Source of the DNA: a virus
DNA: 64,000 nt
Strand: one strand, 5' to 3'
Virus record (IMG/VR): IMGVR_UViG_3300045988_068751
The notes under the pieces are model-generated. The model worked only from the letters and a program-made list of their open reading frames with translations, ran no database searches and was not told the DNA's origin. Shown here piece after piece: positions 9,764-54,183 of the stretch (the stretch's first letter is position 1; every line of letters begins with the position of its first letter). The position numbers and the translations under genes were made by a program.

Positions 9764-9961
9764 TTAGTCTTTAGTTTTAACATAAAGTTGGCAATGGCAA
9801 GTCCCTTCTTCCATTTCCCTAAACTCTTTACACACACATACTGTATTTTCATCTCTTACTAAGGAGCATGGGCAGTACTTCTTACCATACTTCTCTTTAT
9901 TCCTTTTAAGTCCTGCTAAGACTGTCTCTTTTATTTCTTTATTATCAGTTACTTTAATCAT
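9764..9961 (-). CDS. small Cys-rich protein with a CPC-x10-CxC-x11-CHC motif (ferredoxin-thioredoxin-reductase catalytic-subunit-like)
   Basis: motif CPCSLVRDENTVCVCKEFREMEEGTCHC. Confidence 0.45.
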   Translation of the reverse strand: MIKVTDNKEIKETVLAGLKRNKEKYGKKYCPCSLVRDENTVCVCKEFREMEEGTCHCQLYVKTKD

Positions 9962-10389
9962 TGCGCTGACGCTGTATACAGTTCTATGTTTAGGTCTATT
10001 TCCCCACCAGTAAATCTAAATACTCTACCAGAATTATTCATTTTGACCCACCTTCCAGATGAAGGGAATGTTACTCCTTCTGCCCAATTCTCAGATTGAG
10101 AATCTACTGCTAATGTAATTTGAGACACTTGCCTAAGTATCATGTATCCCTCAAAACGTATCCAAACAGGTGTATTATATGGGTCTTGGTTAGGAAGTGC
10201 TAGCTTCTCTAAGTAATATTTAAGAGGATTTGCTAAAGTCTTAGTGTACGTTCGTTCTCCTTGCTCTAATCTTGGAGTAATTGTAAAGTAAGTAGTATTA
10301 TCAGAATACTTAAATGGTTCTCCATCCACCGAACTCTGATTAACAAATGAGAAACGTACTCTAAATTGCTGTATATTATTAATTGGCAT
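9958..10389 (-). CDS. hypothetical protein. The frame stays open 61 codons upstream of the called ATG and runs through a C9/G9 tract; likely 3' part of a homopolymer-interrupted gene (see 9958..10604)
   Basis: ORF track; manual translation of 10390-10604. Confidence 0.5.
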   Translation of the reverse strand: MPINNIQQFRVRFSFVNQSSVDGEPFKYSDNTTYFTITPRLEQGERTYTKTLANPLKYYLEKLALPNQDPYNTPVWIRFEGYMILRQVSQITLAVDSQSENWAEGVTFPSSGRWVKMNNSGRVFRFTGGEIDLNIELYTASAQ

Positions 10390-10557
10390 ATCCTGCCAAC
10401 CATAATGAAGGATTACATTTGGAGCAGTTATAGCTGCCTCTATACCTTCTAACTCTACTAACTGATTATCAGTATAACTAAATCCACTTTTAATCTGACA
10501 TCCTAATTCAAGTGCTCTAGCTTTAGTACAGCACTTATTATCAATTACCGAGAGAGT

Positions 10558-10566
10558 CCCCCCCCC
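10558..10566 (-). repeat. C9 on + strand = G9 on the coding (-) strand, in context ctATGGGGGGGGG; interrupts the reading frame
   Basis: seen directly. Confidence 0.9.
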
Positions 10567-10596
10567 ATAGTCTTAGCTTCTAATTCTGTTGCTATT

Positions 10597-10866
10597 TTAC
10601 TCATGGTTCTTGTATCGTTCTGTAATATTAATTAAATCCTTGTTGTCATGCAGTAACTCTAAGAAAGCCTTGTCTACTGCTATATCAAATGCAGTATTAG
10701 CAATGATTGGTTCTTTATGCACTCTCTCAATCTCTTCTCTAATCATTTGTTCAGATAATTGAGTGTATAATCGTTTGTTATAGTCATTATACCAAGGCTC
10801 ATTGAATGTTACTATTATGTCTTTACCTCTCATAAATATATTGTCTTTAGTAATCCAGGTAGGCAA
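10597..10866 (-). CDS. hypothetical protein
   Basis: ORF track; stop overlaps downstream ATG (ATGAGTAA). Confidence 0.5.
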   Translation of the reverse strand: MPTWITKDNIFMRGKDIIVTFNEPWYNDYNKRLYTQLSEQMIREEIERVHKEPIIANTAFDIAVDKAFLELLHDNKDLINITERYKNHE

Positions 10867-11876: not shown

Positions 11877-11973
11877 TGTTATAAATTTTAGTTATTGTTA
11901 ATAATTCTGATTTAAGTTCGCAAATATATTATTATTTAATTTGACAATACAAAATTAGTTATATATTTCAATA

Positions 11974-11987
11974 TTACCAAATGGTAA
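11974..11987. promoter_or_regulatory. perfect dyad TTACCAA|ATGGTAA (operator-like palindrome) in the divergent control region
   Basis: seen directly. Confidence 0.3.
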
Positions 11988-12008
11988 TATAATTATTAAT
12001 ATATATTA

Positions 12009-12222
12009 TATATTGCCAACTCAAATTCACAGTTAATATTAAGTATATTGCCAACTCGGAACTTCATGACGTGCTGTGGCAATCTGCGCCCCTTCGGGGC
12101 TTGCTTGCAATTAGTAAGATGAATAGAAATTAATATATATTGCCAACTCACAAGTACGGGTGCTCAAAATCACACCCCCTCCCACTCCCGGGGTGGGTTG
12201 TCATATTATATATTGCCAACTC
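12009..12222. repeat. four direct copies of the 14-bp iteron TATATTGCCAACTC (12009, 12044, 12136, 12209), interspersed with GC-rich hairpins (gcccc-ttcg-ggggc; cccactcccggggtggg; cccctcac x2). Candidate replication origin or divergent promoter hub
   Basis: exact repeats read in sequence; 650-bp ORF-free region between divergent gene blocks. Confidence 0.6.
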
Positions 12223-12530
12223 GGATGCTGGGTGAATATTGCAAGATTTGTGTATATTGCGGATACGACAGTCGTGTTACCCCTCACACCCCTCACCCAT
12301 GTTTGGAGAAAATCAAAAGATTTATATCATTTGGTTTTGCTTTATAATATTCATTTTAAAATTATTAGCTTATGTACACTATTTTATCAAACGGTTTAGT
12401 TCGTGTTAATCTTACAGGTTGTTATATCACAATGTCAGAATATAAAGAACTAATTGCAAGCGTATAAAATTAAATTAAGAACGGGTAAATAAGTCCGTTC
12501 TATATTGTTTCACTAATAAATTATTAAACT

Positions 12531-13447: not shown

Positions 13448-13666
13448 TTGACGCAATTTGTGGAGAAGATTCAAGTAATAACGATTAAAAACTTTACAAC
13501 AATGGCAGTAACAAAATACGTTATAACTAACAATCTTTCTGTATTATACAATACTAGGGAGGAAGCAGAAGCTGCATTTGAAGCAGAAGTAGCAAAGTTG
13601 GAAACAGCATTTGCAAGAGGTGCTTTTAAGAGTCTGTACACAGTAGCACCTTTCATAGTAAAATAA
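13448..13666 (+). CDS. hypothetical small protein
   Basis: ORF track; an overlapping minus-strand ORF is judged spurious. Confidence 0.35.
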   Translation: MTQFVEKIQVITIKNFTTMAVTKYVITNNLSVLYNTREEAEAAFEAEVAKLETAFARGAFKSLYTVAPFIVK

Positions 13667-13674
13667 CAATTAAA

Positions 13675-13695
13675 ACCTCATGGTGTACAGGTTAA
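13675..13695 (+). promoter_or_regulatory. conserved promoter-like motif copy 1 (ACCTCATGGTGTACAGGTTAA), 3 nt before ATG 13698
   Basis: 5-member motif family, see findings. Confidence 0.45.
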
Positions 13696-13697
13696 CC

Positions 13698-13997
13698 ATG
13701 CGCACATTTATGGTATTCGAATACATTCATCCAAGCGGAATTAAACTACGTCCGGCTAGACCTTTAACTAACAGCATATTATACATTTACAATCCAATCG
13801 GCAATGAGTGGATGCATTTGTGTAAAGAGGACATACATGGACATTTAGAGCTGTTAACATACTTCAGTAATGGCGCTACTATGTATCAAGTGATTGAAGG
13901 TCTTAAGAAGGTAGTAGAGTATTGGGGAGATGACTATCTCGTAGGTCGTAGAGACTTTTACAAAGAGATTATAGACATCTATTCCTCACACCGATAA
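13698..13997 (+). CDS. hypothetical protein (start moved to the ATG after the motif; ORF track 13680)
   Basis: ORF track; motif position. Confidence 0.5.
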   Translation: MRTFMVFEYIHPSGIKLRPARPLTNSILYIYNPIGNEWMHLCKEDIHGHLELLTYFSNGATMYQVIEGLKKVVEYWGDDYLVGRRDFYKEIIDIYSSHR

Positions 13998-14237
13998 CAT
14001 CACAGGGTTTAGCTCTTCTAAGTAGTTGCAAATGCTTAGAATCCTTTACATGCAAAACGGACATAATGCATGTATTGCCCAAATTAAGACGTTCCTGTTT
14101 CACGCGTTAAAGCAGGAGTCCATTATGGTTGTTTTAATTACATTAATCTTTAAGTTTTAAACAGCGTCCTACATTGTTTGTGGGTTTTGGTATGGCTCCT
14201 CTGCCAAGTAATGCGTACAAAGAGCCACTAATCAAAA

Positions 14238-14258
14238 ACCTCACACTGAATAGGTAAA
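14238..14258 (+). promoter_or_regulatory. conserved promoter-like motif copy 2 (ACCTCACACTGAATAGGTAAA)
   Basis: motif family. Confidence 0.45.
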
Positions 14259-14270
14259 GTGTACATAGTT

Positions 14271-14558
14271 ATGAGTAAATACGATGATTGTCATAGAGTT
14301 GACAATAGATATACCACAGCTATAGGAATGAGCGTGTGGAGATTCTTTAACATTGGCAAATATAAGAATCAGAAAGTGAAAGACGTCTGTTACTTTAATC
14401 CATTCTATGTAGCATGGTGTCTGGAGAGCTGGCAGGGATTTAGTCTTACTAGCTACGAACGTTCCAATTACATGAAAGGACTGGAACGTCAGTTAGAGAA
14501 AGACCCTGAAGACCAAGAACTCATCTTAAAGGTGAGTAGATATAAAACCATTGTTTGA
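14271..14558 (+). CDS. hypothetical protein (ATG 14271; the ORF track starts at GTG 14259)
   Basis: ORF track. Confidence 0.5.
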   Translation: MSKYDDCHRVDNRYTTAIGMSVWRFFNIGKYKNQKVKDVCYFNPFYVAWCLESWQGFSLTSYERSNYMKGLERQLEKDPEDQELILKVSRYKTIV

Positions 14559-14856
14559 TATTTTTACAGAAATGATATAATCTTCCACCATAATGGGTAC
14601 GCCCGGAGACTAATGCAGAGCATCTCTTATACCAAACAGTATCTTCCTTTAATACTGGAGAGATGTCTTATCGTGAGATAAGGCAAAGGAGTGTGGCACA
14701 GGAAGGTGGATTCCTTTACTTGTAATAATATTTTTGTTCGTTTTATTACAGCATATCCTCCCGTGACGGGAGTGGCATCATGACTAAGCCTTTACGTGGC
14801 GATGCTATAAGTAAGTCAATAGACTGAAACTAATTAGTCATAATTAACCATTAAAG

Positions 14857-25462: not shown

Positions 25463-25501
25463 TTGATGAGTTGTGGGTAATCTCGTAAAACCCTCTGTCG
25501 C

Positions 25502-25573
25502 CCCATTACTTCAGTGGTAGAAGAGCAAATTCTAAACTTGTATGGCGTTGGTTCGAGTCCAACATGGGGCACT
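25502..25573 (+). tRNA. tRNA with CUA anticodon (amber-suppressor-type; loop UUCUAAA with U33, A37), type I, amino-acid identity unknown
   Basis: acceptor gccccat/atggggc, D cttc/gaag, anticodon stem gcaa(a)/(c)ttgt with one A-C mismatch, T-arm gttgg-TTCGAGT-ccaac. Confidence 0.7.
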
Positions 25574-36799: not shown

Positions 36800-37867
36800 A
36801 TGATTAGTATTGTATTAGGAACATTCTTCGGCGATTGTGGCAAAGGGCAGACAGTTCACAACTTGTGTAACAAGTACATAGGTAAGCGAGAGTCTGTGTT
36901 AGTAGTCAGGTTTAGTGGTGGACATCAAGTAGGACATACTGTAAAGCATGGAGACATGATGCACACCTTTAGTAACTTTGGCAGCGGAACCTTACTTGGA
37001 GTGCCGACGTACTGGTCCGAATACTGTACTGTAGACCCAATTACCTCTATGTTGGAGGGTGCAGACTTAGCTAAAATGGGAGTTCGTCCCATTGTTCAGT
37101 ATCACCCTCACTGCCAAGTTGTAATTCCCTTCGATGTCTATTCCCAAGTTAATAACGAAGAGAACTTACGACATGGTACTGTAGGTACAGGGTTTAAAGC
37201 TTGTTTGGACCGAGTTAAGGCAGGATACAGCTTAACAGTTGTAGATTGTATGAATCCTTACATACTGCGTGAGAAACTAAATGCCATAGTGGATAACTAT
37301 TACAACATGTCTAGTAAATATCCTTCGATAGACCTAGACAACTGGTGTAGGTTAGCACATGCTTATTTCTTACATACAGGTACGGTTAATGAAGATTGCT
37401 TGTTGAATTATGATAACCTAGTGTTTGAAGGTTCACAGGGAATATTGCTTGACCAAAGATTCGGCATAATGCCTTATTGCACTCCGTCTAATACAACTTC
37501 ACAAAACGCTTACGAGCTGTTGCGGAAAGCAGGTATACGTAAAGAAATCCAAACTTGTTATGTAACTCGTCCTTATATAACAAGGCATGGTAATGGCCCA
37601 TTTCCTTCTGGAATGTCTGTTAGGGATGTCGATGACCCTAATAATAAGTTCAACGATTTCCAGAAGACGCTTAGGGCTATTGATTTCGACAAAGACCTAT
37701 TCGCACACAGTGTACGCATTAACCGTTCATTTAAGGTTCCTTATAGGAATGAACGAACGGAGAAATTGTACGTATCACATTGGGATGAAGCATCTGACGC
37801 AGAGCGAGAAATGCTAGCAAATTTATGGATGTCGATACAGCCCATGATATTCGATAAGTTAGTTTAG
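36800..37867 (+). CDS. adenylosuccinate synthetase-family protein (PurA-like; short 355-aa form comparable to archaeal PurA / phage PurZ). Ends in TAG followed by a terminator
   Basis: IVLGTFFGDCGKGQ vs PurA GTQWGDEGKGK; RFSGGHQVGHTV vs RYQGGHNAGHTL; FEGSQGILLDQRFGIMPYCTPSNTT vs [32 protein letters not shown] vs GAGPFPTE. Confidence 0.75.
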   Translation: MISIVLGTFFGDCGKGQTVHNLCNKYIGKRESVLVVRFSGGHQVGHTVKHGDMMHTFSNFGSGTLLGVPTYWSEYCTVDPITSMLEGADLAKMGVRPIVQYHPHCQVVIPFDVYSQVNNEENLRHGTVGTGFKACLDRVKAGYSLTVVDCMNPYILREKLNAIVDNYYNMSSKYPSIDLDNWCRLAHAYFLHTGTVNEDCLLNYDNLVFEGSQGILLDQRFGIMPYCTPSNTTSQNAYELLRKAGIRKEIQTCYVTRPYITRHGNGPFPSGMSVRDVDDPNNKFNDFQKTLRAIDFDKDLFAHSVRINRSFKVPYRNERTEKLYVSHWDEASDAEREMLANLWMSIQPMIFDKLV

Positions 37868-45923: not shown

Positions 45924-46472
45924 ATGTCTAGTAAGTCTGAAGAGTGGAAGGATATTACTGGATATGAAGGACTCTATCAAGTTTCTACGTTAGGTAATGT
46001 GAGAAGCTACGATAAAATTGTTGGTTGTAGAGGAGGTAAAACACGCCTGGTCAAAGGTAAAATACTAGCTCCTACCAGAAGTGGTAATGGTTACGTGAAA
46101 GTTATGCTAACTAAGAACAAAACTCGTAGAAACAGGAATGTTCATAGATTAGTTGCCGAAGCATTTATACCAAACCCCGACGGATTTACAGATATAAATC
46201 ATATAAACGAAATTAAGACCGACAATAGAGTTTCCAATCTGGAGTGGTGTTCCAGGTGCTATAACAATCATTACAGTCGTATCCCAGAGAAGATGAATGA
46301 AGCCAAGAAGATTAGAGTTAAACAGGTGTCTTTAGATGGTGAAATTATTAATGTCTGGAATGGAATCAGAGAAGCAGCTAGAGCTTTAGGTATTAAGTCT
46401 CATAGACACATATCTGATTGCTGTAAAGGAAAAGCTAAAACATGTTATGGTTTTAAATGGGAATACTGTTAA
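45924..46472 (+). CDS. HNH homing endonuclease (NUMOD4-like N-terminus + HNH_3-like core)
   Basis: EWKDITGYEGLYQVSTLGNVRS (NUMOD4-like); VHRLVAEAFIPNP...INHI...DNRVSNLEW. Confidence 0.7.
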   Translation: MSSKSEEWKDITGYEGLYQVSTLGNVRSYDKIVGCRGGKTRLVKGKILAPTRSGNGYVKVMLTKNKTRRNRNVHRLVAEAFIPNPDGFTDINHINEIKTDNRVSNLEWCSRCYNNHYSRIPEKMNEAKKIRVKQVSLDGEIINVWNGIREAARALGIKSHRHISDCCKGKAKTCYGFKWEYC

Positions 46473-53605: not shown

Positions 53606-53658
53606 TTCTTATGTATGGTGATAGGTTATGGAATAGACATTCCAGCCAGAATATCACT

Positions 53659-53667
53659 GGGGGGGGG
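53659..53667 (+). repeat. G9 homopolymer in the 53606-53877 gene-poor region, read as GGG in two open frames
   Basis: seen directly. Confidence 0.9.
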
Positions 53668-53877
53668 TGTAGGCTCTTCTTCGTTGCTCCTAGCAACACA
53701 CCTAATGCCAAGTATAGGCATTATTGTTATCAGTTTATGATAACGGACTTTAGGCTACGTTATATTTAATGTAGTGCTAATCGCGCAGAACGATATTCGT
53801 ACTGCCGTTTAGGGTCAAATTCAGATTAGTTATTAGATTATTCTTTACTTCTAATGAGGTAAGGTCTACTCTAGTGA

Positions 53878-54183
53878 TTGTCTGGGTTTGGCCCTTCTTT
53901 TTTAACTTTAGATATGCAGAAATTTAAGTACGAAGACAATGAACTAATACCCATTTTACAGGCAGGAGACCTTATCACTGTAAACGGCAGTCCGGTGGAA
54001 ATCGTTGACAGTGGTTGCGCGTGCTTTGGCTGTTACTTTAAAGCCAGTGACTGTACTATGGAGTGTAGATGTCCACTTGACGAAGACTTGATATTTCGAA
54101 AGGTGGAAAAGAAGATTAAACAAGATGAGAGGGTTGAGCAAACTAAAAACGTGGCTGAAGAGGAAGGGATTTACTTCTACTAA
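53878..54183 (+). CDS. hypothetical Cys-rich small protein
   Basis: ORF track. Confidence 0.45.
   Translation: MSGFGPSFLTLDMQKFKYEDNELIPILQAGDLITVNGSPVEIVDSGCACFGCYFKASDCTMECRCPLDEDLIFRKVEKKIKQDERVEQTKNVAEEEGIYFY

Follow-up and report, generated by a model that had tools for sequence, protein, structure and literature searches.

The locus and its reading frames

IMG/VR virus record IMGVR_UViG_3300045988_068751 was analysed as one stretch of 64,000 nucleotides (nt), referred to here as the window, from an uncultured human-gut phage with a GC content of 37% and contigs of up to ~188 kb. The element in question is a run of nine G residues (G9) on the minus strand, read as C9 on the plus strand (10558..10566), which lies in codons 14-16 of a gene and throws it out of frame. 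The gene begins with an ATG at 10604..10602, and the TAA stop of the upstream open reading frame (ORF) falls at 10599..10597, giving the overlap ATGAGTAA. The likeliest form of the upstream gene is that of 78 amino acids (aa) starting at an ATG (10597..10833, minus strand) rather than an 89-aa form starting at a TTG, judging by the 78-aa calls in relatives, and the start/stop overlap suggests translational coupling of the two genes. From the ATG at 10604 the frame enters the tract as MSKIATELEAKTMGGG, continues with LSR and meets a TAA. The 5' part of the gene as sequenced (10545..10604, minus strand) comprises 19 sense codons, encoding MSKIATELEAKTMGGGLSR, and that stop. The remainder (9958..10557, minus strand) holds 199 codons and a TGA in the other frame and includes the called ORF 9958..10389. 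Its TGA overlaps, as ATGA, the ATG of a downstream 65-aa FeThRed_B-like gene on the same strand (9764..9961).

Addition of one G to the tract (G10) produces a stop-free ORF of 215 aa, with its end at 9958, that takes in the called ORF. Removal of two (G7) restores the same frame with 214 aa, and removal of one (G8) leaves the gene out of frame, the G9 and G8 products being 19-20 aa long. The junction peptide of the full-length product is TMGGGTLSVIDNK. A preliminary description of the stretch had reported the overlapping ATG, the G9 tract, termination after 20 codons (the 19 sense codons and the stop) and the joining to ORF 9958..10389, by G10 or a -1 slip, into a protein of ~215 aa. All of these readings were reproduced, and G7 was added as a second length that restores the frame.

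A search with the 215-aa reading found 80 homologs, all of them metagenomic, in which residues 1-57 were nearly invariant. Clusters of 215-aa proteins with 1636 and 1150 member sequences carry the exact junction MGGGTLSVIDNK. Shortened calls of 143, 166 and 167 aa form clusters of 1337, 1253 and 526 members respectively, and these are the output of gene callers working on out-of-frame alleles. The proposal in the preliminary description that the two halves form one gene, with no intergenic spacer between them, is upheld because the protein matches are dominated by full-length homologs of 215 aa that have the identical junction (..AKTMGGGTLSVIDNK..). Homologs without a tract and with two clearly separate genes, which had been named there as evidence to the contrary, were not encountered. 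The fused ORF is a real single gene split by the tract and not a short ORF, a spacer and a 143-aa gene. Neither megablast nor tblastn matched the gene or its locus to any of the 50,697 deposited phage records.

Variation of the tract among relatives

The length of the tract was compared in 64 related contig records from the human gut, 17 from IMG/VR and 47 from a metagenome scan of JGI/ENA, most of the latter with SPAdes-style names; about five duplicate assemblies occur in both collections and the counts are slightly redundant. The 17 IMG/VR contigs had tracts of G7 to G10 and one interrupted form, GGGGGGAGGG. The JGI/ENA contigs divided into 19 in frame, 27 out of frame and one deleted, and over all 64 records ~40% of alleles were in frame, a ratio of gene-inactivating (OFF) to full-length (ON) alleles of ~60:40. 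The commonest allele was that of the window, G9 after ATG (OFF), found in 13 of the 47 JGI/ENA contigs. Other out-of-frame alleles were G8 after ATG and G7, G8 or G10 after ATA, and they were spread over both wrong frames, with 16 of the JGI/ENA contigs needing a shift of -1 and 11 a shift of +1. The alleles in frame were G10 after ATG, G9 followed by A, G9 after ATA and the interrupted forms GGGGGGAGGG, GGGAGGGGGG, GGGGGGGAG and GGGGAGG.

The rate at which alleles change relative to their surroundings was estimated from 900 nt of flanking sequence at 60 loci. Pairs with 1-3 differences in the flanks had different tract alleles in 82% of cases, and pairs 40 or more differences apart in 85%; two contigs identical over the whole flank (L107 and L137) had G9A and G7A. 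In alignments to the window totalling 298 kb, those three tracts that were covered were among the top sites of frame-changing indels and differed from the window in 14-20 of ~30 alignments each, as against 13 indels in total for A/T runs of 4-5 nt. The frame downstream of the target tract (~199 codons) was intact in 33 of 37 OFF copies and in 21 of 24 ON copies, and the ratio of nonsynonymous to synonymous polymorphism (pN/pS) was below 1 in both classes (0.50 between OFF copies, 0.38 between ON copies). The tract was also retained in alleles whose C-terminal identity to the window was as low as 23-25%, as G7 in L089, G10 in L090 and GGGGAGG in L086-88.

Over-representation of long G tracts and depletion of other homopolymers

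At a GC content of 37.5% the window contains only four G/C runs of at least 6 nt, and all four are 8-9 nt long (1225-1232, 1897-1905, 10558-10566 and 53659-53667), with none of length 6-7. A first-order Markov model of the window predicted 0.22 runs of at least 8 nt where four were observed, and shuffling of synonymous codons predicted 0.03 within coding sequences (CDS). GGG accounts for 6.2% of the glycine codons in the 24 long ORFs of the window. The tract is over-represented against both base composition and codon usage; it is selected and not compositional.

The opposite held for A/T runs. None of 7 nt or more was found in the 64 kb, against 21 expected from the Markov model and 17.3 +/- 3.7 (minimum 10) from codon shuffling, and within called CDS there were four of at least 6 nt where 58 were expected. 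Usage of AAA and AAG was nearly equal (380 and 393) despite the 37% GC. The sister genome MT835470.1 (L091-L093), a GenBank record from human faeces which is 97% identical to the window where they overlap, had in 117 kb, as its only G/C runs of at least 6 nt, the same two tracts of the gene family described below, and only two A/T runs there reach 7 nt. Depletion of homopolymers on this genome-wide scale suggests strong selection against runs that are prone to slippage.

The paralogous family and the fourth tract

Three of the four tracts of the window sit in one paralogous family. On the plus strand, one paralog (1154..1543) has an in-frame G8 at 1225-1232 and a second (1778..2272) an in-frame G9 at 1897-1905. 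Both are ON in the window and both tracts range from G6 to G11 in relatives, that of the first being mostly G9 and OFF. The closest paralog of the target N-terminus (2285..2827, plus strand; MTNKIATE..TGGGT..TKCATR..NNQLV) is 'locked': it has no tract, the aligned Gly-Gly-Gly being encoded by GGT GGA GGT. A fifth member of ~357-361 aa (361 aa in frame in L076; MGRIVTQ/MSRIVTQ..YG[KR]GGG-YCPxY..NQLVKEEDI) is absent from the window and occurs at 3119-4192 in L086, 3011-4074 in L090 and 13651-14735 (minus strand) in L076. It has a G tract of its own: L076 and L090 have G9, which is OFF, and L086 has an interrupted form that is in frame. A BNR/Asp-box assignment was considered for the 361-aa protein of L076 and rejected, since it has a single S-x-D-x-G-x-x-W motif and no sequence match in Pfam or the PDB.

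The fourth tract (G9, 53659..53667, plus strand) is not in a gene. It lies in the 5' part of an intergenic region of 310 nt (53606-53914) which is almost invariant in nine relatives, beyond the conservation of coding DNA, is rich in hairpins, and varies only at this tract (G6-G11) and in two hairpin loops. No Rfam match was obtained for the region and no compensatory changes were seen among the nine relatives; it could represent a structured RNA or have a regulatory role. All four tracts of the window vary independently of one another, and 10 genomes, including the window and L076, displayed six of the eight ON/OFF combinations that the three tract genes allow. A site at 12175 was examined as a possible fifth tract and discarded, the difference there being a rare one of 1 nt (C5 against C4 in relatives) that is also present in two related locus records.

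Protein architecture

The full-length protein has two parts. A conserved N-terminal module of ~57 residues (10435..10604, minus strand; IATELEAK-GGG-NKCCTKARALELGC-NQLVELEGIE) is common to the paralogs and to distant relatives with other C-terminal domains, among them a protein without a tract on a contig binned into a Phocaeicola metagenome-assembled genome (MAG). A hypervariable C-terminal domain of ~158 residues (9958..10434, minus strand) is swapped, as a cassette, among strains and among paralogs. In an AlphaFold model of the monomer, residues 60-215 formed a confident beta-sandwich, with a predicted local distance difference test (pLDDT) score >90, and residues 1-57 had no confident structure (pLDDT <50). 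Among related contigs the C-terminal domain was 23-32% identical where the flanking genes were 89-100% identical; between L090 and the window, for example, the flanking genes were 89-100%, the N-terminal module 88% and the C-terminal domain 25% identical. Two proteins, P0076 and P0042, are reciprocal natural chimeras of two paralogs joined at the NQLVxxEDI boundary.

Searches of Pfam, PHROGs, NCBIfam and PADLOC gave no match for the fused protein or the three paralogs and no functional assignment of the neighbours, and no significant fold or family match was obtained. A family-profile search of 5.8 billion proteins recovered 941 members, none named beyond 'hypothetical protein'. A conserved N-terminus with a swappable C-terminus resembles, by analogy, the organisation of phage host-recognition proteins, and the N-terminal module probably serves for docking or oligomerisation. 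Assignment of the family to putative receptor-binding proteins is finely balanced, with the balance tilting slightly towards doubt.

A candidate partner for the N-terminal module is encoded on the plus strand at 3069-6809, adjoining the cluster of tract-bearing paralogs. This is a protein of 1246 aa with a central glucosaminidase (FlgJ-like) domain, which may be a virion-associated cell-wall hydrolase.

Interpretation of the tract

The G9 run is probably a hypermutable contingency locus, a poly-G tract altered by slipped-strand mispairing within a single gene of 215 codons, which in the window was caught in the OFF state. A slipping tract is the preferred explanation because tract length differs among near-identical genomes. 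The locus also has each of the sequence-level features of simple sequence repeat (SSR) contingency loci that were tested for, namely a tract of about G7 or more within an ORF or its promoter, toggling by +/-1 between full-length and truncated products, polymorphism and over-representation. The preliminary description had offered two mechanisms, an OFF phase variant and a programmed frameshift site; the first is borne out by these length differences, and the second fared badly for the reasons given below.

We infer that switching takes place within populations, reversibly and by replication slippage, and that the proteins mediate recognition of the host surface. Mispairing during replication of the phage DNA would add or remove a G. 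With lengths of 7 or 10, or of 9 before an A or after ATA, the gene would be in frame and yield the full-length protein, and with other lengths translation would end after 19-20 codons. The tracts in the two other paralogs of the window, and the further one present in some strains, would vary independently and give populations with a combinatorial mixture of ON and OFF genes. Such switching could act as bet-hedging by proteins that recognise the surface of the host, probably a member of the Bacteroidota, where that surface is itself variable.

Several observations weigh against this account. All of the evidence compares consensus assemblies, and some of the length differences could be errors of homopolymer assembly, especially in contigs of ~3x coverage. 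OFF alleles are the more frequent and pN/pS is rather high, both of which are compatible with a dispensable accessory gene. The family also lies outside the canonical tail-fibre module, and because of this position a role in receptor binding can only be inferred.

The most durable of the alternatives, though an improbable one, is that the true sequence is G10, that the gene is intact and that the length differences are errors of sequencing or assembly. Homopolymers are error-prone, several of the related contigs have only ~3x coverage, the sequencing platform of the largest IMG/VR source (3300045988) is not known, and the window has no A/T run above 6 nt to serve as an internal error control. 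However, identical discrete alleles turn up repeatedly in numerous independent assemblies that look to be from short reads, including some of good depth (L101 at 122x, L110 at 24x, L133 at 18x), and the sister tracts behave alike in the GenBank record and in contigs derived from the HMP. ON and OFF protein calls alike form clusters that exceed 1000 members, and indels are concentrated in the G tracts with almost none in A/T runs of 4-5 nt. Error would also leave unexplained why the phage writes GGG GGG GGG against its own codon usage and why interrupted alleles that are in frame exist.

Slightly less credible again is programmed recoding, in which G9 would be the functional state and the full-length protein would be made by -1 ribosomal frameshifting or by an RNA polymerase that stutters and adds a G. 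On the G9 template, G GGG GGG GGA, a shift of -1 is in the correct direction to reach the downstream frame and would allow tRNA-Gly to re-pair; the phage encodes a tRNA-Gly(UCC), and G9 is the commonest allele. Long homopolymers cause transcriptional slippage, which makes leaky expression from OFF alleles plausible. Against this, the length of the tract is not conserved (G7-G10) and 19 of 46 natural alleles are in frame outright. The OFF alleles fall in both wrong frames (16 against 11), which no single programmed shift could serve, and the stabilised, interrupted alleles are in frame with none out of frame. A stimulatory hairpin or pseudoknot, expected 5-9 nt downstream of such a site, is lacking after the tract (fold z-scores of -0.59 and -0.69, the nearest hairpin being ~20 nt downstream), and the 0-frame product would be a peptide of 19 aa.

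Least favoured of the three is plain pseudogenisation of a dispensable gene, with no adaptive or reversible switching, for although OFF alleles are in the majority, L099, L101, L127 and L140 have extra premature stops or deletions and pN/pS is 0.4-0.5, the downstream frames are equally intact in OFF and ON copies, the two states are interleaved among near-identical sequences, the tract is kept across alleles with only ~25% C-terminal identity, and three paralogs and an intergenic site bear similar tracts where every other homopolymer has been purged. The combination of intact OFF copies with fast change of the tract has the appearance of rapid, non-destructive switching and not of decay.

Comparison with known systems

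The nearest parallel is found in the Fletchervirus phages of Campylobacter, in which hypermutable poly-G tracts within genes are described as causing phase variation of receptor-binding proteins (Sorensen et al., Cell Rep 2021;35:109214, as cited in PMC10579305, PMC12823448 and PMC10877375). As those citing articles present the system, the two have in common poly-G tracts inside coding genes of a phage, ON/OFF states driven by tract length, several tract genes per genome and a proposed phenotypic diversity towards a host whose surface is phase-variable. They differ in that no sequence relationship was found among the 50,697 phage records and that both the phage lineage and the protein family are other ones. 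In the same accounts, receptor binding and effects on host range are demonstrated for Fletchervirus, where here they are putative, and the tracts of the present phage stand in a genome purged throughout of other homopolymers. It would seem that the same switching principle operates, through non-homologous genes, in an unrelated phage of the human gut.

In T-even and other cultured phages, slippage of the polymerase at homopolymers within ORFs causes reversible frameshifts of +/-1, which have been read as bet-hedging (Gomez, Barrick & Waters, bioRxiv 2025, PMC12633550). T2, T4 and T6 have 168-191 runs of at least 6 nt, mostly short and spread over all classes of gene (PMC12633550), whereas the phage studied here has ~10 in the 64 kb of the window and 15 in 117 kb of the sister genome, and its long tracts are exclusively of G, 8-9 nt in length and concentrated in one paralogous family. 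The tracts are similar to the poly-G/C loci in genes for surface structures of Campylobacter, Neisseria, Haemophilus and Helicobacter in having G8-G11 close to the 5' end of an ORF, in the independent switching of several loci ('phasotypes') and in over-representation relative to composition. Unlike those bacterial loci they are borne by a virus, whose own machinery replicates them.

The conserved N-terminus and variable C-terminal domains of genes with a putative part in host interaction recall both the invertible tail-fibre segments of Mu and P1 and the diversity-generating retroelements. Neither a reverse transcriptase nor a template repeat of the kind found in retroelements was seen here. 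In contrast to Mu and P1, no inverted repeats flank the ~3.8-kb segment of the window that contains the target gene, no invertase was identified in a search that was not exhaustive, and the switch is a frameshift tract.

A more speculative proposal, which we regard as rather doubtful, is that targeted mutability is a design of the genome as a whole, in which homopolymers have been purged and four to five long G tracts kept as dedicated switches. If so, three to four tracts in a surface-recognition family would permit up to 8-16 phasotypes to match the phase-variable capsules of Bacteroidota, and the tract in the conserved, structured intergenic RNA could tune regulation in the manner of a rheostat. 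Such a genome would provide the first evidence from natural populations for a 'phasome' in a virus of the human gut. In the literature searched, to the extent that its sources were available, poly-G phase variation in phage genes was tied to a single paper about Campylobacter phages and wider SSR loci to a single 2025 preprint about laboratory coliphages and vibriophages (PMC12633550); the interest of the present case lies in the host environment, the prevalence, the organisation in several paralogs and the homopolymer purge.

The phage is an abundant uncultured inhabitant of the gut, with protein clusters of more than 1000 members in public runs, and its ON/OFF polymorphism can be seen directly in dozens of independent metagenomes. 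Read-level tract spectra from existing data could provide a handle on the ways in which phages of the gut hedge against hosts with surfaces that themselves vary in phase. For annotation, the tract explains the splitting of the gene into 143- and 166-aa fragments by gene callers, and phage genes that are frameshifted at G tracts should not be dismissed as pseudogenes or assembly errors. The purge of homopolymers across the genome may help in finding similar systems.

Neighbouring genes and other features of the phage

About 5 kb separate the family from the terminase; its block diverges from the portal/tail-fibre module, and the 1246-aa glucosaminidase-domain protein is encoded beside it. The ~3.8-kb segment with the target gene (6823-10605 in the window, 10000-14715 in L076) occurs in two orientations or arrangements among the relatives, 49 being window-like and 16 L076-like with a few duplicates included. 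In the arrangement of L076 the target lies directly downstream of a gene for a 1252-aa glucosaminidase-domain protein, and another tract-bearing paralog stands in its place behind the 78-aa gene. The 65-aa FeThRed_B-like gene is linked to the target in both. An invertase-type switch between the two was rejected, since neither boundary of the segment in the window (6823 and 10605) has inverted repeats and the gene content differs as well; the arrangements were taken as mosaicism. Some 600 nt of non-coding DNA separate divergent gene blocks at 11900-12500, with repeated ATATATTGCCAACTC motifs, and may be an origin or promoter region.

The phage probably has a genome of ~155-190 kb and infects Bacteroidota. 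It is a distant relation of Ackermannviridae-like and Bastille-like myoviruses, with which it shares ~47% identity in one core protein. Just 5 of 69 ORFs have a Shine-Dalgarno-like motif in front of them, where the background is 14%, and this scarcity and the relative binned into Phocaeicola together give a weak pointer to a Bacteroidota host.

There are 28 tRNA genes on the plus strand between 18416 and 52740, among which that at 25500-25572 stands out; one has the anticodon CUA, of the amber-suppressor type, and is labelled 'Pyl' by ARAGORN. Recoding of TAG, which the tRNA(CUA) brought to mind, was rejected: coding density is 94.5% under the standard code with no gain from reassignment, and the stops that concern the target gene are TAA and TGA. 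Neither the window nor 117 kb of the sister genome showed a sign in its coding density of TAG or TGA recoding. A short homolog of adenylosuccinate synthetase (36800-37867, plus strand; 355 aa, PF00709 at 4e-33, phrog_1211) falls below the thresholds of both the PurA and the PurZ models. A Z-genome, with 2-aminoadenine in the phage DNA, was considered as the cause of the homopolymer spectrum and set aside as no more than a lead, the gene being PurA-like with 19 bits to the PurZ model and having no DatZ- or MazZ-like domains nearby. At 45924-46472 on the plus strand lies a gene for an HNH/NUMOD homing endonuclease.

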